15,134 nucleotides of DNA from a virus (taxonomy: Duplodnaviria; Heunggongvirae; Uroviricota; Caudoviricetes): the IMG/VR virus record IMGVR_UViG_2648501400_000006; one strand, 5' to 3'. How positions within the stretch are numbered: the first letter of the stretch is position 1; each line of letters begins with the position of its first letter. The translations under genes were made by a program, and so were the position numbers. Positions 2,576-14,081 of this stretch are shown one piece after another. The notes below the pieces were generated by a model. That model did no database searches, had not been told where the DNA came from, and was given only the letters and a program-made list of their open reading frames with translations.

Positions 2576-3295
2576 ATGCCAACACCAAATCCCCTGGAGC
2601 CGGTAAAAGGTGCCGGTACCACCCTGTGGGTTTACAACGGCAAGGGTGACGCCTATGCAAACCCGTTGTCAGACGATGACTGGCAGCGACTGGCTAAGGT
2701 GAAGGATCTGACGCCGGGCGAGATGACGGCAGAACCCTACGATGATAACTACCTGGATGATGAAGACGCGGACTGGACCGCGACCGGGCAGGGACAGAAA
2801 TCTGCAGGAGATACCAGTTTTACACTGGCCTGGAAACCGGGAGAAGAAGGTCAGAAAGGGCTTATAGGCTGGTTTGAAAGCGGGGATGTGCGGGCCTATA
2901 AAATCCGTTTTCCGAACGGCACGGTGGATGTGTTTCGTGGCTGGATCAGCAGTATCGGTAAGGCAGTGACGGCGAAAGAAGTGATCACCCGAACAGTGAA
3001 AGTGACCAACGTGGGCAAACCTTCCGTAGCGGAAGAACGCAGCAAAATTACGCCGGCCACTGCAATTAAGGTGACACCGACATCCGGTACCGTGGAAAAA
3101 GGAAAAACAACCACCCTGACGGTTTCTTTTGAGCCGGAAAGTGCAACCGACAAGACGTTCAGAGCGGTTTCCGCCGATCCGTCAAAAGCAACCATTACTG
3201 TGAAAGATATGACAATCACGGTAAACGGCGTGAAGACAGGAAAAGTGCAGTATCCCCGTGATGACCGGAAATGGTCAGTTCGCCACAGTAGCTGA
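2576..3295 (+). CDS. V: Major tail tube protein V-like; last ~13 codons out of the ancestral frame (apparent 1-nt insertion near 3251)
   Basis: GAGGA RBS at 2567-2571. 239-aa ORF matches lambda gpV ([68 protein letters not shown]…[42 protein letters not shown]…) up to …TITVNGV.TGKV, then ends [14 protein letters not shown]. The shifted frame 3249-3329 encodes [26 protein letters not shown], which resembles the lambda gpV C-terminus (…[21 protein letters not shown]). Confidence 0.85.
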
Positions 3296-4214: not shown

Positions 4215-6775
4215 TCTTGTTATTGACCTGAGTCTGGATGCGGTCCGTTTCGATGAGCAGATGAGCCGGGTAAGGCGTCATTTTTCAGGACTGGAGACCG
4301 ACGCCAGAAAAACCGCCAGTGCTGTTGAACAGAACCTGAGCCGCCAGGCGCTGGCTGCACAAAAAGCCGGGATTTCCGTCGGGCAGTATAAAGCGGCCAT
4401 GCGAACCCTGCCCGCACAGTTTACGGATATCGCCACGCAGCTTGCCGGTGGTCAGAATCCCTGGCTGATCCTGCTGCAACAGGGCGGTCAGGTGAAGGAC
4501 TCCTTCGGCGGGATGATCCCCATGTTCAGGGGGCTTGCCGGTGCGATCACCCTGCCGATGGTCGGGGTCACCTCGCTGGCGGTGGCGACAGGTGCGCTGG
4601 CGTACGCCTGGTACCAGGGAGATTCCACGCTTTCAGCGTTTAATAAAACCCTGGTTCTTTCCGGTAATCAGTCCGGACTGACTGCCGATCGCATGCTGAC
4701 GCTCTCAAGAGCCGGACAGGCAGCAGGGCTGACGTTTAACCAGGCGAGAGAGTCACTGGCAGCCCTGGTGAATGCCGGTGTGCGTGGTGGTGAACAGTTT
4801 GATGCCATCAACCAGAGTGTCGCGCGTTTTGCGTCTGCATCCGGTGTGGAGGTGGACAAAGTCGCAGAAGCCTTCGGAAAACTGACCACCGACCCGACGT
4901 CGGGACTGATGGCGATGGCGCGCCAGTTCCGTAACGTGACGGCAGAGCAGATTGCGTATGTTGCACAGCTGCAGCGTTCCGGAGACGAGGCCGGGGCATT
5001 ACAGGCGGCGAACGATATCGCCACGAAAGGCTTTGATGAGCAGACCCGTCGCCTGAAAGAAAACATGGGAACACTGGAGACCTGGGCGGATAAAACAGGG
5101 AAGGCATTCAAATCGATGTGGGATGCCATTCTGGATATCGGTCGTCCTGAGTCCTCAGCGGATATGCTCGCCAGTGCACAGAAGGCATTTGATGAGGCGG
5201 ATAAAAAATGGCAGTGGTACCAGAGCCGGAGCCAGCGCCGCGGAAAAACCGCCTCTTTCCGGGCCAACCTTCAGGGCGCATGGAATGACCGGGAAAATGC
5301 CCGTCTGGGGCTGGCAGCGGCCACGCTGCAGTCGGATATGGAAAAAGCCGGTGAACTGGCCGCCAGGGACCGGGCCGAACGGGACGCATCACAGCTGAAG
5401 TATACCGGAGAGGCGCAGAAGGCGTATGAGCGTCTGCTGACGCCGCTGGAGAAATATACCGCCCGTCAGGAAGAACTGAATAAGGCACTGAAAGACGGGA
5501 AAATCCTGCAGGCAGATTACAACACGCTGATGGCGGCGGCGAAAAAGGACTATGAAGCGACGCTGAAAAAGCCGAAACAGTCAGGAGTCAAAGTGTCAGC
5601 CGGCGAGCGTCAGGAAGACCAGTGCGCATGCTGCCCTGCTGACGCTTCAAACAGAACTCCGGACGCTGGAAAAACACACCGGAGCGAATGAGAAAATCAG
5701 CCAGCAGCGTCGCGATTTATGGAAAGCGGAAAATCAGTATGCGGTCCTGAAAGAGGCAGCCACGAAACGGCAGTTATCTGAGCAGGAAAAATCCCTGCTG
5801 GCCCATGAGAAAGAGACGCTGGAGTACAAACGCCAGCTGGCTGAGCTGGGAGACAAAGTTGAACACCAGAAACGGCTGAATCAGCTGGCACAGCAGGCTG
5901 CGCGGTTTGAACAGCAGCAGAGCGCGAAGCAGGCGGCAATCAGCGCAAAAGCCCGCGGACTCACCGACCGTCAGGCGCAGCGGGAGTCGGAAGAGCAGCG
6001 CCTTCGTGACGTGTACGGTGATAATCCGGATGCGCTGGCGAAGGCCACATCTGCACTGAAGAACACCTGGTCTGCGGAGGAGCAGCTTCGTGGAAGCTGG
6101 ATGGCCGGTCTGAAGTCCGGCTGGGGCGAGTGGGCAGAAAGTGCGACGGACAGTTTTTCGCAGGTTAAAAGCGTGGCCACGCAGACCTTTGACGGTATTG
6201 CACAGAATATGGCAGCGATGCTGACCGGCAGCGAACAGAACTGGCGTGGTTTCACCCGTTCTGTGCTCTCCATGCTGACAGAGATTTTTCTGAAGCAGGC
6301 GATGGTGGGGATAGTCGGGAGTATCGGCAGCGCCATTGGCGGTGCTTTCGGTGGTGGTGCGTCTGCCTCCACGGGGACGGCCATTCAGGCTGCGGCGGCG
6401 AACTTCCATTTCGCGACCGGGGGATTTACGGGGACGGGGGGTAAATATGAACCTGCGGGAATTGTTCATCGCGGGGAGTTTGTCTTCACGAAGGAGGCAA
6501 CCAGCCGGATTGGCGTCGGCAACCTGTATCGTCTGATGCGCGGGTATGCGGAAGGTGGTTATGTGGGCGGTGCCGGAAGTCCGGCGCAGATGCGGCGGGC
6601 GGAAGGCATTAGTTTTAATCAGAACAATCACGTGGTGATTCAGAACGACGGTATCAACGGACAGGCAGGGCCGCAGCTGATGAAAGCGGTGTATGACATG
6701 GCCCGCAAGGGGGCGCAGGATGAGATTCAGGCGCAGATGCGTGATGGCGGCGTATTTTCCGGAGGCAGGCGATGA
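4195..6775 (+). pseudogene. H: Tail tape-measure protein H-like, split by an apparent +1 frameshift near 5619-5620 (N-part frame 1: 4195-5691; C-part frame 2: about 5567-6775)
   Basis: GGAGGTG RBS at 4179-4185. The 4195 ORF matches lambda gpH from the N-terminus (…VGDLV.DLSLDA.RFDEQM.RVRRHFSG…GISVGQYKAAMR.LPAQFTD.ATQLAGGQ.PWLILLQQGGQVKDSFGGMIPMFRGLAGAITLPMVG…) through …KKPKQS.VKVSAG.RQED, then reads QCACCPADASNRTPDAGKTHRSE*. Frame 2 from 5621 reads SAHAALLTLQ.ELRTLEKH.GANEKISQQRRDLWKAENQ… and continues through …AGIVHRGEFVFTKEATSRIGVGNLYRLMRGYA.GGYVG… to TGA 6773-6775, matching the lambda gpH continuation. Removing one C at 5619/5620 (GAAGAC[C]AGTGCG) restores one ORF of ~859 aa. Frame 2 has a stop at 5564-5566, so the switch must lie in 5567-5691. 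Confidence 0.75.
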
Positions 6776-7804: not shown

Positions 7805-8483
7805 ATGACACAGACAGAATCAGCGATTCTGGCGCATGCCCGGCGGTGTGTGCCTGCGGAGTCGTGCGGCTTCGTGGTGAGAACGCCGGAGGGGGAGCGG
7901 TATATCCCTTGTGTGAATATCTCTGCAGAGCCGGAGGCGTATTTTCGTATTGCACCGGAAGACTGGCTGCGGGCAGAGATGCAGGGGGAGATTGTGGCAC
8001 TGGTCCACAGTCATCCCGGTGGTCTGCCGGGGGGAAATTCATAAATTCCGCTGTGTACCACATCTGACAGGACGGCGCTTTGAGCACGGGGTGACGGACT
8101 GTTACACGCTGTTCCGGGATGCCTACCATCTGGCGGGAATTGATATGCCGGATTTTGAGCGTGAGGATGACTGGTGGCGCAACGGTCAGAACCTTTACCT
8201 GGACAATATGGCGGTCACCGGCTTTTACCGGGTGCCCCTGTCCTCTGCACAGGCGGGCGATATCCTGCTGTGCTGCTTTGGCGCATCGGTGGCCAATCAT
8301 GCCGCCATTTACTGCGGCAACGGTGAACTGCTTCACCATCTGCCTGAACAACTGAGTAAACGGGAGAGGTATTCCGAAAAATGGCAACGACGAACGCATT
8401 CTGTCTGGCGTCACCGCCACTGGCACGCATCTGCCTTCACGGGGATTTGCAACGATTTGGCCGCCGCCTCAGCCTGTATGTGA
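7805..8483 (+). pseudogene. K: Tail tip assembly protein K-like (MPN/JAMM + NlpC/P60), disrupted: N-part frame 2 (7805-8044, stop TAA 8042-8044), C-part frame 0 (about 8028-8483)
   Basis: 7805 ORF: MTQTESAILAHARRC.PAESCGFVV.TPEGERY.PCVNIS.EPEA…EDWL.AEMQGEIVALVHSHPGGLP then GGNS*. Frame 0 from ~8028: RGEIHKFRCVPHLTGRRFEHGVTDCYTLFRDAYHLAGI.MPDF.REDDWWRNGQNLYLDN…LLCCFG.SV.NHAAIYCG.GELLHH.PEQLSKRERY..KWQRRTHS.WRHR.W.ASAFTGI.NDL.AAS… ending TGA 8481-8483 and overlapping I by 103 nt. The HxH of a JAMM motif is present but the expected downstream S-x-x-D is missing; the junction coincides with a G6 run (8029-8034). From memory of lambda K, about 22 codons are absent, implying a ~65-bp out-of-frame deletion. 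Confidence 0.65.
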
Positions 8484-9061
8484 ACACGGCAGCGGAAGCC
8501 ATCCGGGCGCTGTCGTTACAGGTGCCGGGATTCCGCCGTCAGATGAACGAAGGCTGGTACCAGATACGTATTCGCGGTGAGGACACGGCACCGGAGGCGG
8601 TGTACGCCCGTCTTCACGAACCTCTGGGTGAGGGGGCGGTCATCCACATTGTGCCGCGACTGGCCGGAGCCGGAAAGGGCGGACTGCAGATTGTGCTGGG
8701 GGCGGCGGCCATCGTGGGGTCGTTCTTCACTGCCGGGGCATCAATGGCGTTATGGGGTTCAGCCCTGGCAGCCGGCGGTTTTTCTGCCACCACGATGCTG
8801 TTTTCACTGGGGGCCGGCATGATTCTGGGTGGTGTGGCTCAGATGCTTGCCCCGAAGGCCAAAGTACCGGAGTACAAAAGCACGGATAACGGCAGACAGA
8901 ACACGTATTTTTCGTCACTGGACAACATGATTGCCCAGGGGAACCCGATGCCGGTGCCTTACGGGGAAATGCTGGTTGGCTCCCGCCGTATATCCCAGGA
9001 CATCAGTACCCGTGATGAAGGCGGTGACGGGAAGGTGGTGGTTATCGGGCGGCAGGCATAA
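8381..9061 (+). CDS. I: Tail tip assembly protein I-like
   Basis: 226 aa; …LASP..ARICL.GDLQRFGRR…AEAIRAL..Q.P.FR…GWYQ.RI.G.D…GAVIHIVPR.AGA..GG.QIVLGAAAI.GSFFTAGA…FSLGA.M.LGGVAQMLAPKA..P…TDNG.QNTYFSSLDNM.AQGN..PV.YGEM.VGSR..SQ.IST.DEG…VVVIGR matches lambda gpI; starts 103 nt before the K stop. Confidence 0.9.
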   Translation: MATTNAFCLASPPLARICLHGDLQRFGRRLSLYVNTAAEAIRALSLQVPGFRRQMNEGWYQIRIRGEDTAPEAVYARLHEPLGEGAVIHIVPRLAGAGKGGLQIVLGAAAIVGSFFTAGASMALWGSALAAGGFSATTMLFSLGAGMILGGVAQMLAPKAKVPEYKSTDNGRQNTYFSSLDNMIAQGNPMPVPYGEMLVGSRRISQDISTRDEGGDGKVVVIGRQA

Positions 9062-9066
9062 AAGCG

Positions 9067-9104
9067 AAAAAATCCCGCAGTGCTCACGGACAGGAACTGC
9101 GGGA
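9067..9104 (-). terminator. Minus-strand intrinsic terminator candidate (stem 9073-9080/9097-9104 followed on the minus strand by T6 = complement of A6 at 9067-9072)
   Basis: Read directly: AAAAAA-TCCCGCAG-(16-nt loop)-CTGCGGGA on the + strand; on the - strand this is hairpin then TTTTTT. Located about 150 nt past the sodC stop in the sodC transcription direction, abutting the I stop. Confidence 0.45.
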
Positions 9105-9221
9105 GCGTTACGAAGATTGAGTGTAAGGAATTATTCTTATGTCACGACAAAAACATTAACTCAGAGAGGGAGGATGTGCCGTTCTTTTCAGGGAGAAAGG
9201 ATTTATCGTCCTGAGGAATAA

Positions 9222-9245
9222 AGGTAAGGGGCCCGCCCCTTACCT
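9222..9245 (-). terminator. GC-rich 10-bp hairpin (AGGTAAGGGG-CCCG-CCCCTTACCT) 6 nt downstream of the sodC stop; weak U-tract
   Basis: Perfect inverted repeat read in sequence; on the - strand it is followed by TTTATTCCTC. Could be a sodC terminator or transcript-stabilising hairpin. Confidence 0.4.
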
Positions 9246-9251
9246 GACTGA

Positions 9252-9779
9252 TTATTGAATGATGCCGCAGGCCATTCTCGCACCACCACCGCCCAGGGAC
9301 TCCGGATGGTCATGATGGTTATCACCGCCAGCATGAAGCATGAGAGAACGCCCTTTAATCTCTTTTAATGAGTTCAGTCTCGGGGCCAGGACCGGGTAGT
9401 TCGCTTTTCCGTCATGCGTCACGAACAGCGCAGGGAGGTCGCCCAGGTGTCCATCCGGAGACCAGGGGCCAAGATGTTTGCCGGTGTTTTTCGGGTCAAA
9501 GTGACCGCCAGCCGATAATGCTGCGACCGGTTTTCCGTCTTTCAGTGCCGGGGCGCAATTTCCTTTTTCGTGCACATGAAAACCATGAATGCCTTCAGAC
9601 AGAGAGTGAAGGGCTGGTGTGAACAGCAGACCGTAGGGGGTCTCCTGAATGGTTATTTTTCCAATGCTGACTTCTTTTCCGTCAGCACTGACAAGGTTCA
9701 TTGGGACTTCCTGTTCTGCTGCGTATCCGCATGATGCTGCTGTCAGCATGGCAATAGCAGCAATGATTTTACATTTCAT
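9252..9779 (-). CDS. sodC: Periplasmic Cu,Zn superoxide dismutase (prophage-encoded SodC)
   Basis: Minus-strand ORF; chosen start is the ATG at 9777-9779 ([20 protein letters not shown]… signal-peptide-like N-terminus) with GAGGA RBS 4 nt upstream. Translation contains hallmark Cu,Zn-SOD motifs (…[22 protein letters not shown]…AGGHFDP..TGKH.GP…[14 protein letters not shown]…APRL.SL.EIKG.SLM.H.GGDN..D.P..LGGGGAR.ACGIIQ). The longer 9252-10286 ORF in the track is an upstream read-through without support. Confidence 0.9.
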
Positions 9780-9912
9780 AAAATCCTCATTAATTCCGTT
9801 AACAGACTGAGCTTGCTGGTTACAGGGTAACAAACAGCGTTCTGATGATATCGCGCAATAGCTGTGCAATATCCTGTCACTGCGATTAATAATACCAATT
9901 GAGAGGAACATT
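9780..9912. promoter_or_regulatory. Divergent sodC/J intergenic region; presumed sodC promoter (exact -35/-10 not resolved)
   Basis: 133-bp AT-richer spacer between the sodC start (minus) and the J start (plus); sodC is antisense to the late operon so needs its own promoter here. I could not confidently assign sigma70 hexamers by eye. Confidence 0.3.
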
Positions 9913-12900
9913 ATGGGCAAAGGTGGCGGCAGGGCGCACACGCCTCGAGAGGCGAAGGATAATCTCAAATCCACGCAGATGATGAGTGTGATTGATGCGA
10001 TTGGTGAGGGACCGATAGAAGGCCCGGTGAAGGGGCTGCAGAGTATCCTGGTGAACAAAACCCCGCTGACGGACACGGACGGCAATCCTGTGATACACGG
10101 TGTGACCGCGGTCTGGCGCGCCGGGGAGCAGGAGCAGACACCACCGGAAGGCTTTGAGTCCTCCGGAGCTGAAACCGGACTGGGCGTGGAAGTGACGAAG
10201 GCAAAGCCGGTAACGCGCACCATTACATCCGCGAACATTGACCGCCTGCGGGTCACCTTCGGGGTGCAGTCACTGTTGGAGACCACCTCAAAGGGCGACC
10301 GTAATCCCTCTTCTGTCCGACTGCTGATTCAGTTGCAGCGTAACGGTAACTGGGTGACGGAAAAGGATGTCACCATTAACGGCAGGACCACCTCACAGTA
10401 CCTGGCGTCGGTGATTCTGGAGAATCTGCCTGAGCGGCCCTTTAACATCCGGATGGTCCGGGAGACAGCGGACAGCACCTCGGACCAGCTGCAGAATAAG
10501 ACGCTCTGGTCGTCATACACCGAAATCATCGATGTGAAACAGTGCTACCCGAACACGGCGATTGTGGGGCTGCAGGTGGATGCGGAGCAGTTTGGCGGTC
10601 AGCAGATGACGGTGAACTACCATATCCGAGGTCGCATCATCCAGGTGCCGTCAAACTATGACCCGGAAAAACGCACGTACAGCGGCATCTGGGACGGCAG
10701 CCTGAAACCGGCATACAGCAACAACCCGGCCTGGTGCCTGTGGGACATGCTGACTCACCCGCGCTACGGCATGGGAAAACGTCTGGGGGCGGCAGACGTG
10801 GACAAATGGGCGCTGTATGCCATCGGGCAGTACTGCGACCAGACGGTCCCGGATGGTTTCGGGGGCACAGAGCCGCGGATGACCTTTAATGCGTACCTGT
10901 CACAACAGCGTAAGGCATGGGATGTGCTCAGTGATTTCTGCTCGGCGATGCGATGTATGCCGGTATGGAACGGCCAGACGCTGACGTTCGTTCAGGACCG
11001 CCCGTCGGATGTGGTGTGGCCGTACACCAACTGCGATGTGGTGGTGGATGATAACGGCGTGGGGTTTCGCTACAGCTTCAGCGCCCTGAAGGACCGCCAC
11101 ACGGCGGTGGAGGTGAATTACACCGACCCGCAGAACGGCTGGCAGACCTCCACGGAACTGGTGGAAGACCCGGAAGCCATACTGCGCTACGGGCGCAACC
11201 TGCTGAAGATGGATGCGTTCGGTTGCACCAGTCGCGGTCAGGCCCACCGTGCCGGGCTGTGGGTGATAAAGACCGGACTGCTGGAAACGCAGACGGTGGA
11301 TTTCACGCTCGGGTCACAGGGGCTGCGTCACACACCCGGTGACATTATTGAAATCTGTGATAACGACTATGCCGGGACCATGACCGGCGGACGTATCCTG
11401 TCCATCGATGCCGCCAGCCGCACCCTGACACTGGACCGTGAGGTGACCCTGCCGGAGACAGGTGCCGCCACGGTGAACCTGATTAACGGCAGCGGTAAGC
11501 CGGTGAGCGTGGCCATCACTGCACACCCCGCGCCGGACCGGATACAGGTCAGCACCCTGCCTGATGGTGTGGAGACATACGGTGTATGGGGACTCTCCCT
11601 GCCGTCACTACGTCGTCGCCTGTTCCGCTGTGTCTCCATCCGGGAAAACACGGACGGCACCTTTGCCATCACGGCGGTGCAGCACGTACCGGAAAAAGAA
11701 GCCATTGTGGATAACGGGGCCAGCTTTGAGCCACTGTCCGGTTCGCTGAACAGCGTCATCCCGCCGGCTGTGCAGCACCTGACGGTGGAGGTGAGCGCGG
11801 CTGACGGTCAGTATCTGGCACAGGCGAAATGGGACACGCCGCGGGTGGTGAAGGGTGTGCGCTTCAGTCTGCGCCTGACCAACGGAAGCGGAGAAGACAG
11901 CCGTCTGGTGACCACCGCCATCACTGCGGATACAGAGCATCGTTTCAGTGGTCTGCCGCTCGGGGAATACACCCTGACAGTCAGGGCAATTAACAGTTAT
12001 GGCCAGCAGGGCGAACCGGCCACCACCACCTTCCGGATTAACGCGCCAGCAAAACCCGCCACCATTGAACTGACGCCGGGGTATTTTCAGATAACGGCGG
12101 TCCCGCGTCTTGCGGTGTATGACCCGACGGTACAGTTTGAGTTCTGGTTTTCGGAGGCAAAAATCGCAGACACATCTCAGGTGGAAACCTCTGCCCGTTA
12201 TCTGGGGACCGGCAGTCAGTGGAGTGTATCCGGCCCGCACATTAAGCCCGGGAAGGATTTCTGGTTTTACGTGCGCAGCGTCAACCTGGTGGGGAAATCT
12301 GCGTTTGTGGAAGTCAGCGGGCAGCCCAGCAATGATGGTGAAGGGTATCTGGAATTTTTCCGGGAAAAAATAGGAAAACTGCATCTGGCTCAGGGGCTAT
12401 GGGAGCTGATAGACAACAGCCAGCTTGCGGATGAGATGGCGGAGATGAAGACCACCATCACCGAAACCCGCAATGAAATCACACAGACGGTCAGTAAAAC
12501 GCTGGAAGACCAGAGCGCCACCATTCAGCAGATACAGCGCGTGCAGAAGGACACAAATGATGACCTGGCTGCGCTGTACATGCTGAAGGTTCAAAAAACG
12601 AAAGACGGCATTCCCTATGTGGCCGGGATTGGTGCAGGGATTGAGGATACTGATGGCCAGCCACTGAGCAACATACTGCTGCTGGCTGACCGTATCGCGA
12701 TGATAAATCCGGAGAGCGGCAACAGCACTCCGTTATTTGTGGCGCAGGGGAATCAGCTGTTCATGAACGACGTGTTCCTGAAGCGTCTGTTTGCGGCGAG
12801 TATCACGTCATCCGGCAACCCCCCGACGTTTTCCCTGACGCCGGAAGGGAAGCTGACAGCCAGGAACGCGGATATCAGCGGAGCAATTACCGCGAATACC

Positions 12901-13389
12901 GGCACGCTCAATAATGTCACCATTAACGAGAACTGTGTCATCAGAGGGAAACTGTCTGCAAACCAGATTGAAGGCGACCTGGTGAAGACGGTGGGGAAAG
13001 CCTTTCCCCGGAATAACAGTTATGCCAGCGGGACGGTAACCGTCACAGTTTACGATGACCAGGGCTTCGACCGGCAGATTATCATTCCCCCGGTGCTGTT
13101 TCGCGGGACGAAACACCAGAATTTCAACAGCCCGAATCAGCAGTCGTACTGGTATTCCACCTGTAAGCTGCAGGTGCTGAAGAACGGGGTTGAGATTTTC
13201 CATGAACCGGCAACGGATGTCAGCCGGGTGTTCTCATCGGTGATAGATATGCCGGCAGGGCGGGGTCATGTCACCCTGACGTTTAATGTGTCGTCGGCCG
13301 GTGCGAACAACTGGACGCCGACAACGTACATCAGTGATTTACTGGTTGTGGTCATGAAAAAATCCACGGCAGGGATCAGTATCAGCTGA
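9913..13389 (+). CDS. J: Tail tip / host-specificity protein J-like (central tail fibre)
   Basis: 1158 aa; GAGAGGAA RBS at 9901-9908; N-terminus MGKG…[35 protein letters not shown]… and long stretches (…[52 protein letters not shown]…[34 protein letters not shown]…[32 protein letters not shown]…[17 protein letters not shown]…) match lambda gpJ; the C-terminal ~150 aa diverge. Confidence 0.9.
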
Positions 13390-13408: not shown

Positions 13409-13432
13409 GGCACCTCAGGAGGTGCCTTTTTT
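13409..13432 (+). terminator. Intrinsic terminator after J (stem 13409-13415/13420-13426, loop CAGG, T6 at 13427-13432)
   Basis: GGCACCT-CAGG-AGGTGCC-TTTTTT read directly, 20 nt after the J stop. Confidence 0.6.
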
Positions 13433-13457
13433 ATTGACTGAAAACAAAGAGGTAATC

Positions 13458-14081
13458 ATGCGGCATTTATACGCAACGATATTATTGTTTACTACCCTGC
13501 TGGCAGGAATTGCCTTTCCTGCACAGGCTGAAAGCGGACACGGTGCATTTTCCGTGGGATATGCTCAGGTTCACCCGGGCGGCGTACCGGCATTGTCCGG
13601 TACCGGTGCGCGTGCAGGTGATTTAAAAGGGATTAATGTGAAATACCGTTATGAGTTCACGGATCACCTGGGCGGCATTGTCGCGCTGAGTTATGCATCG
13701 GTGAAGAAAAGTGACACGATGAAGACGGGTGAAAATACCTTCCATTATGAAAGCCTGCGCGGTCGTTATGTCAGTCTGATGGCCGGCCCTGTCTGGCAGC
13801 TCAGTGAGCGGGTCAGTCTCTATGGCATGGCCGGGATGGCGTACACCCGCTGGTCTGACAGTGTTCAGGATTACCGGCGTGATGAAGTGAAACCGGGGTA
13901 TGTGAAGGAGACCACCACCGCCAGTGATGGTCATACTGCGCGTCATCTGTCGCCGGCCTGGAATGCCGGGATTCAGTTCAGTCCCGTAGAGACGGTGGTT
14001 ATTGACCTTGCTTATGAAGGTTCCGGCAGTGGCGACTGGCGCACTGACGGTTTCATCGTGGGTGTCGGCTATAAATTCTGA
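13458..14081 (+). CDS. lom: Lom outer-membrane protein (Ail/Lom/PagC family)
   Basis: ATG at 13458 with GAGG RBS (13448-13451); signal peptide MRHLYATILLFTTLLAGIAFPAQA; …GINVKYRYEFTD.LG…MAGP…YEGSGSGDWRTDGFIVGVGYKF matches lambda Lom including the identical C-terminus. The upstream GTG at 13422 lies inside the J terminator and was not chosen. Confidence 0.9.
   Translation: MRHLYATILLFTTLLAGIAFPAQAESGHGAFSVGYAQVHPGGVPALSGTGARAGDLKGINVKYRYEFTDHLGGIVALSYASVKKSDTMKTGENTFHYESLRGRYVSLMAGPVWQLSERVSLYGMAGMAYTRWSDSVQDYRRDEVKPGYVKETTTASDGHTARHLSPAWNAGIQFSPVETVVIDLAYEGSGSGDWRTDGFIVGVGYKF

Follow-up and report, generated by a model that had tools for sequence, protein, structure and literature searches.

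The DNA analyzed here is a stretch of 15,134 nucleotides (nt) from the IMG/VR virus record IMGVR_UViG_2648501400_000006 (hereafter the window, meaning the whole stretch), which by gene order and Pfam matches is the late head-tail region of a lambdoid (lambda-like) Escherichia coli prophage, and the subject of this study is the spacer between its tail genes I and J. Independent cargo units in a phage operon are termed morons in the sense of Hendrix and Juhala. The I-J spacer very probably holds one of them, the known SodC-F moron, i.e., a self-contained antisense unit from which the repressed prophage would make a dimeric Cu,Zn superoxide dismutase (SOD) that is exported, in part with a lipid anchor, and protects the envelope of the lysogen from external superoxide. 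What is said below on expression, RpoS independence, dimeric state, dual location, and peroxide resistance is taken from the literature on O157 genes that are 99% identical. Phage-borne sodC is already known biology here, and the SodC cargo itself, a textbook fitness and virulence moron which is annotated automatically in hundreds of genomes, adds nothing new. The new points are only the anatomy of the sodC cassette, the displacement of the promoter of the small RNA (sRNA) gene pasB, and the different ways in which pasB is arranged at the I-J junction of related phages.

In phage lambda, 60 bp separate I (end 15444) from J (start 15505), whereas 851 bp lie between the stop codon of I (TAA, 9059-9061) and the start codon of J (ATG, 9913) in the window. 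An initial annotation, made from the sequence alone, had described this enlarged spacer and a complete Cu,Zn-SOD gene on its opposite strand with a ribosome-binding site of its own, and all three are confirmed (Table 1). The 175-residue product, which that annotation had suggested comparing with SodC proteins, belongs to the SodC family. It matches Pfam Sod_Cu (PF00080) with E 1.3e-31 (110.2 bits at a cut-off of 28.9, profile positions 3-133 of 133) and solved bacterial SodC structures of the Protein Data Bank with E 1e-61 to 1e-55, including 1eqw (Salmonella SodCI, E 1e-60) and 1eso (E. coli SodC, E 1.8e-55). The copper ligands H68, H70, H93 (bridging), and H149, the zinc ligands H93, H102, H111, and D114, the disulfide cysteines C75 and C171, and the active-site R168 are all there and are invariant across five aligned bacterial SodCs (from the window, E. 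coli K-12, Gifsy-2, Fels-1, and Serratia). The ligands align with H46/H48/H63/H120 (Cu) and H71/H80/D83 (Zn) of human SOD1, and R168 and C171 with its R143 and C146. The window gene is an intact sodC with every catalytic residue. Its product shares 99% identity with members of its own 90% cluster, namely the common E. coli prophage allele and the EDL933 copy, and the exact protein (RefSeq WP_052906844.1) was seen on one contig only. With only 58% identity to the chromosomal SodC of the host, the phage gene was not copied from the latter, and identity to the SodCs of Salmonella phages is 57-60%. A search of one genome per species found no close donor above ~69% identity, the best matches being sodC loci of Leminorella, Pseudomonas, Serratia, and Pragia.

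The boundaries of the cassette follow from alignment with the sodC-less relatives Stx2c_JNE110649 and Stx2_EH2201 (Stx, Shiga toxin). The window and the sodC-less Stx2c phage share the 107 bp that follow I (9062-9168), and in the sodC-less relatives ~125 bp of unrelated sequence occupies the position of the cassette. The cassette is therefore a replacement of ~125 bp in a pre-existing ~240-bp spacer and not a pure insertion; the initial annotation, which had spoken of an insertion at the I-J junction, was right about the place of the cargo and has to be amended as to the event. Because homology to the relatives is lost from 9169 to the start codon of J, the cassette also supplies the ribosome-binding site of J (GAGAGGA, 9901-9907). 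An impression by eye that sodC is less GC-rich than the tail genes is borne out by computation. The GC content is 0.525 in the sodC coding sequence and 0.501 in the cassette vs. 0.608 in I and 0.578 in J, the GC content at third codon positions (GC3) is 0.50 vs. 0.68 and 0.71 in I and J, respectively, and the cassette lies in the lowest 0.4% of all 744-bp segments of this sequence. As in other morons, sodC is situated between genes that are adjacent in related phages, its base composition is unlike that of its flanks, and it has a terminator-like hairpin of its own.

Across 17 sodC junctions, 14 of them distinct, the block 9107-9912 shows a pairwise identity of 99.9%, vs. 94.1% for the last 360 bp of I and 95.3% for the first 390 bp of J. 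Such a nearly invariant block within diverged flanks argues for recent spread by recombination and not for co-descent with the tail genes, and the sodC cassette is young mobile cargo that has spread horizontally in recent times through recombination in the flanking tail genes. The I-sodC-J arrangement (a 2-kb stretch at a coverage of at least 80%) is present in 540 of 5426 complete E. coli genomes, where the Prokaryotic Genome Annotation Pipeline of RefSeq annotates sodC, and in two Stx2a phage records as well. Stx phages and about 100 relatives from IMG/VR possess sodC-less, pasB-only I-J spacers of 240-340 bp.

For the near-identical gene of E. coli O157, a 299-bp upstream fragment, from which the gene is transcribed in the lysogen, drove lacZ independently of RpoS, and lacZ fusions together with tagged proteins revealed expression of the SodC-F genes during exponential growth, in stationary phase, and under anaerobic conditions (D'Orazio et al., 2008; PMC2569942). 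According to the same study, O157 SodC-F is a dimer that is more active and more stable than the chromosomal SodC, occurs both in soluble and in lipid-anchored form, consistent with a lipobox and a signal-peptidase-I site at 20/21, and its genes contribute to peroxide resistance (PMC2569942). The activity of 19380 U/mg reported for SodC-F1 (PMC2569942) applies to a protein from which the window allele differs by P161S. On the side of the window, terminator-like sites are enriched, with 6 in the scanned region vs. 1.5 ± 1.4 expected from shuffles. The terminator-like hairpins mentioned in the initial annotation are real as far as the two on the minus strand are concerned; the one at 9104-9067 belongs to a pasB-family gene and not to sodC.

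Several observations weigh against the reading of the spacer as a functional SodC-F moron. A scan of 8800-10200 detects no sigma-70 consensus promoter on either strand (0.8 expected), and since none is found upstream of sodC, its autonomous transcription rests on the published work with the near-identical gene. The divergent promoter region that had been proposed is thus right in its position between the divergent genes sodC and J, and it contains neither a sigma-70 consensus nor a mapped promoter. P161S affects the PLGGGG loop, in which every SodC compared has proline, and the Shine-Dalgarno sequence of the window allele carries a private change as well. Neither a Q gene nor a late promoter lies within the window. 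Finally, the amino acid identity between the SodCs of the window and of Salmonella phage Fels-1 (59%) is near that of I (70%), L (69%), and J (64%), with M at 49%, so that sodC might have come to this junction long ago. Among promoter candidates picked by eye upstream of sodC and J, all were discarded for poor hexamers or wrong spacing, and of a PhoP box, looked for ahead of sodC on the model of sodCI, only one good half-site was seen by eye.

The private changes raise the question of whether the window sodC might be a decaying remnant in a defective prophage, the allele with P161S and an altered Shine-Dalgarno sequence having lost its function or expression. Of the six variable sites in the cassette block, four have changes seen in the window alone, namely 9299 (P161S), 9756 (synonymous), 9784 (Shine-Dalgarno GAGGG to GAGGA), and 9876 (upstream), and, as mentioned, the exact protein is confined to one contig. 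Furthermore, in comparison to the closest complete relative, CP039403, which is 98.5% identical over the whole window, there is one additional T in the major tail gene V at 3251 and another in the tape-measure gene H at 5623, which causes premature termination at 5691, and K has a deletion of 65 bp at 8020 between 9-bp direct repeats TGGTCTGCC. These lesions indicate either a defective prophage or sequencing errors. Should they be genuine, tail assembly is impossible for this prophage, and how late transcripts reach J no longer matters in this copy. However, the open reading frame (ORF) has its full length, ligands, disulfide cysteines, and signal peptide are intact, the change from GAGGG to GAGGA does not weaken the Shine-Dalgarno sequence, cargo genes commonly outlive phage functions, and the single-base insertions could be sequencing errors. 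A decaying remnant is therefore considered unlikely.

It is still less likely that sodC is ancestral at the I-J junction, inherited vertically since before the split of E. coli and Salmonella phages and lost from the sodC-less relatives. The Fels-1 gene sodCIII is found at the same I-J junction and on the opposite strand, and such a history would fit the tail-gene-like divergence of the two SodCs. Against it, no similarity is detectable between the non-coding flanks of the window and Fels-1 genes, and the insertion points differ. Fels-1 is devoid of pasB and has kept a lambda-type hairpin 5' of J, the E. coli cassette is nearly invariant in spite of flanks 5-6% apart, and its GC3 of 0.50 contrasts with ~0.70 in these flanks. 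Lambda, more than 100 close relatives, and most pasB-bearing relatives are without sodC. The initial annotation had treated sodC as acquired and not as ancestral in this phage lineage, which these data support, and the interpretation as recently spread SodC-F cargo is maintained.

sodC is divergent from J and convergent with I, and the initial annotation had asked whether late transcripts reach J by reading through sodC in antisense or whether J has its own promoter. In lambda, the whole late region forms a single Q-antiterminated transcript. In a repressed prophage the late operon would be silent, and sodC could be transcribed without head-on conflict, as suggested by analogy with Gifsy-2. 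After induction, Q-antiterminated polymerase starting at the late promoter would ignore terminators and cross the cassette, antisense to sodC, to J, and read-through of this kind is most likely the way by which late transcripts reach J. The two minus-strand terminators, in turn, would keep transcription of sodC out of I and K. A strong plus-strand terminator is absent from the spacer, the only candidate being a weak site at 9536-9555.

A promoter for J inside the cassette, employed in place of late read-through, seems highly improbable. One might think of it since the cassette brings the ribosome-binding site of J and has removed a plus-strand hairpin that precedes J elsewhere. This GC-rich hairpin, followed by a T-run, is located just 5' of J in lambda (locus L006, 766-790), Fels-1 (L005, ~4370-4395), and the pasB-only spacers (L002, ~2300-2335). 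Its sequence, AAACCGCC..GGCGGTTTTGTC, is common to lambda and Fels-1, reads CAGGCAYCC..GGRTGCCTG with a compensatory pair change in Stx phages, and is missing from 9780-9912 of the window, having been removed by the E. coli sodC cassette. Yet no promoter-like plus-strand site was found in 8800-10200, and the late region of lambda is established to be transcribed as one unit. As the plus strand of the spacer has neither a strong terminator-like nor a promoter-like site, a separate promoter for J is neither needed nor supported.

The segment that the cassette left next to gene I belongs to the PasB family of sRNAs. PasB is an 83-nt Hfq-dependent sRNA which was found by RNA interaction by ligation and sequencing (RIL-seq) in enteropathogenic E. 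coli E2348/69 (Pearl Mizrahi et al., 2021; PMC8550237), and Hfq-dependent accumulation and target pairing were shown only for this allele (PMC8550237). From the northern probe and the coordinates, it is encoded at 1466261-1466343 on the minus strand of prophage PP6, antisense between I (end 1466255) and J (start 1466496). The window copy resembles it in its I-J position, in its antisense orientation, in a terminator stem CCCGCAG/CUGCGGG with U-run, and in the core UCCUU..AUCUUC, and differs in having the sodC cassette in place of the promoter. A covariance model built from seven PasB-family units, with window-like variants excluded, matches the window from 9162 to 9066 on the minus strand with 46.4 bits (E 5.7e-8, positions 1-97 of 97). 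The part equivalent to the 83-nt E2348/69 PasB runs from 9150 to 9067, and homology to the sodC-less spacers extends up to 9168. The window copy is closer to the widespread PhiR5_1-type variant (95% identity) than to the 83-nt type sequence (~66%), and the stem of the terminator is conserved among relatives while its loop varies in length.

In the sodC-less spacers of ~240 bp, from phages 75-98% identical here, the minus strand presents an AT-rich block, a -35 element TTCACA, a TATAAT-like -10 element, and a stretch of ~95 nt, and the pasB unit ends with the hairpin CCCGCAG...CUGCGGG and a U-run. In the window, homology to pasB breaks off at 9168/9169, between the -10 element and the transcribed part, and the sequence upstream is the 3' flank of sodC. 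No more residual homology to the pasB promoter than in shuffles is present in this flank (9169-9251), and a promoter of its own with TTCACA and a TATAAT-like element directly upstream is absent from the window pasB, a promoter scan likewise giving no site. The 107 bp at 9062-9168 are thus a pasB homolog whose promoter was removed by the cassette and whose body was left 3' of the sodC terminator, 53 nt downstream of its hairpin and on the same strand. The cassette entered a spacer already holding an antisense pasB, with deletion of the pasB promoter and of the plus-strand hairpin upstream of J.

The 107-bp segment is found in 1362 of 5426 genomes, with a best match at least 99% identical in 509 records. 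These 509 are taken to be the sodC-linked form, their number being near that of the 540 I-sodC-J genomes. Since the cassette overwrote the pasB promoter, surveys of pasB based on BLAST will count ~500 genomes whose pasB has no promoter of its own. A recent Pas sRNA survey is silent on sodC (Zhu, Shabalina, and Storz, 2026, preprint), the word "sodC" does not occur in the supplements of the Hfq cross-linking and cDNA analysis (CRAC) of enterohaemorrhagic E. coli (EHEC; Tree et al., 2014), where an sRNA next to sodC was sought, and Rfam gave no match at gathering thresholds over the whole window. AgvB, AsxR, Esr41, and STnc100, considered as identities for the 107-bp element, are all in Rfam and none of them matched. 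A permissive Rfam scan of 8900-10000 returned a STnc400 match at 9212-9288 on the minus strand, over the stop codon and terminator of sodC, with 23 bits vs. a threshold of 80 (E 0.08), which is driven by the terminator and probably due to chance, and a snoRNA match which was dismissed as chance, too. Small ORFs within 9062-9251 (96, 44, 43, and 42 amino acids) are regarded as spurious, the longest having no Pfam match and all overlapping the conserved sRNA and terminators.

One may speculate that the pasB body is a live distal part of the sodC 3' untranslated region (UTR), giving rise to a PasB-like Hfq-binding sRNA under the sodC promoter, and that the I-J junction is a landing pad for antisense cargo built around pasB, an idea that we consider possible and rather doubtful. 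Transcription would partially read through the weak-tailed sodC terminator (9245-9222) and stop at the pasB terminator, and processing would then yield the PasB-like sRNA. If true, an oxidative-defence cargo gene would be coupled to an sRNA regulon.

The I-J spacer of some related phages contains four tandem, diverged PasB-like units of ~220-247 bp (IMG/VR contigs L114, at 12105-13093, and also L121, L123, and L046), all with a terminator and a TTCACA box and all but one with a TATAAT-like -10 element. Tandem PasB arrays seem to be unreported, because the 2026 survey gives 28 kb as the minimum distance between PasB copies (Zhu, Shabalina, and Storz, preprint), and the one to four tandem pasB-like genes at the I-J junction of some phages do not appear in its main text and supplement. 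In a third common spacer form (L101 and 42 other IMG/VR loci, ~280 nt from pasB to J), a single pasB unit is accompanied by ~100 bp which lie between its promoter and J and contain a hairpin of another kind, AAACCCCGGTATC..GATACCGGGGTTT.

Table 1. Features of the I-J region of the window (coordinates refer to the 15,134-nt stretch).
Feature	Position	Strand	Remarks
sodC coding sequence, SodC-F type Cu,Zn superoxide dismutase	9252..9779	-	ATG at 9779 to TAA at 9252; 175 amino acids and stop
SodC export signal, residues 1-20	9720..9779	-	read from translation; lipobox AASC (residues 14-17, Cys17), signal-peptidase-I site after Ala20 (GYA/AEQ)
sodC Shine-Dalgarno sequence GAGGA	9784..9788	-	4 nt before ATG; GAGGG in 16 other junctions
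sodC terminator-like hairpin	9222..9245	-	just 3' of sodC; 10-bp stem, 4-nt loop, U-rich tail UUUAUUCCUC; from pattern and fold only
Divergent sodC/J control region	9780..9912	none	sodC promoter presumed here or just inside J
sodC cassette	9169..9912	none	744 bp; missing in sodC-less relatives
pasB-family sRNA gene body without promoter	9066..9162	-	PasB homology and covariance model
Intrinsic terminator of pasB homolog	9067..9104	-	9-bp stem 9104-9096/9081-9073, then U6 at 9072-9067; directly after I stop
I-J intergenic spacer	9062..9912	none	851 bp
Tail assembly gene I	8381..9061	+	longest ORF; Pfam Lambda_tail_I, E 3.3e-15; relatives annotate "tail assembly protein"
Tail tip/host specificity gene J	9913..13389	+	7 Pfam matches, 6 of them GpJ or phage-tail domains, E down to 3e-41

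The gene order of the window is capsid, FI, head-tail joining, Z, U, V, G/T, H, M, L, K, I, J, an Ail/Lom gene, and the start of the side tail fibre gene. RefSeq relatives start gene I at the position equivalent to 8480. The gene of the Ail/Lom outer-membrane family (13422-14081, plus strand) after J marks a second classic moron position. In the closest relative (L003, 18470-20197), genes for the type III effectors nleB2, nleC (partial), and nleH (frameshifted) come shortly after the tail fibre genes, in a part that the window does not reach. The value of the present analysis is modest and consists in the exact boundaries of the sodC cassette, in its spread as a near-invariant block, and in the overwriting of the pasB promoter and the pre-J hairpin.

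Among known systems, SodC-F1 and SodC-F2 of lambdoid prophages in E. coli O157:H7 (D'Orazio et al., 2008; PMC2569942) are closest, sharing with the window a 99% identical protein, the same signal peptide with AASC and 20/21 site, and the I-sodC-J arrangement, which is also found in Stx phages and O157 genomes. They differ from the window allele by P161S, one synonymous, and two upstream changes, and the window prophage by its lesions in V, H, and K. The near-identity to SodC-F, together with family, ligands, composition, and presence/absence pattern, upholds the classification of the gene by the initial annotation as a prophage-borne periplasmic SodC moron that is not a novel system. As precedents, EHEC prophages and Salmonella phage Gifsy-2 had been cited. 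The former holds for O157:H7, whereas Gifsy-2 sodCI, likewise an antisense phage-borne Cu,Zn-SOD moron in the tail operon, is found at the M-L junction, with a lom-like gene downstream of M on one side and L on the other, and not between I and J, its product being 57% identical to that of the window. Gifsy-2 sodCI is a virulence factor which reaches >100 transcripts per million (TPM) in the lysogen, where lytic genes stay at or below 10 (PMC7067206). The chromosomal SodC of E. coli K-12 (b1646) belongs to the same enzyme family with the same ligand set, and is monomeric, RpoS-dependent, and only soluble (PMC2569942); at 58% identity, it is not the source of which the phage gene would be a copy. 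The counterpart at the I-J junction is Fels-1 sodCIII of Salmonella, which likewise codes for a Cu,Zn-SOD, lies antisense between a lambda-like I and J, and has a GC content below that of its neighbors. It differs by an identity to the window sodC of 59-60% at the amino acid and 64% at the nucleotide level, by a distance of 53 bp between I and the sodC stop, by the lack of pasB, by the retained lambda-type hairpin, and by a non-coding homology to the window cassette flanks that does not exceed that in shuffles. The window and Fels-1 are therefore read as probable cases of repeated use of one permissive site rather than of shared cassette ancestry.

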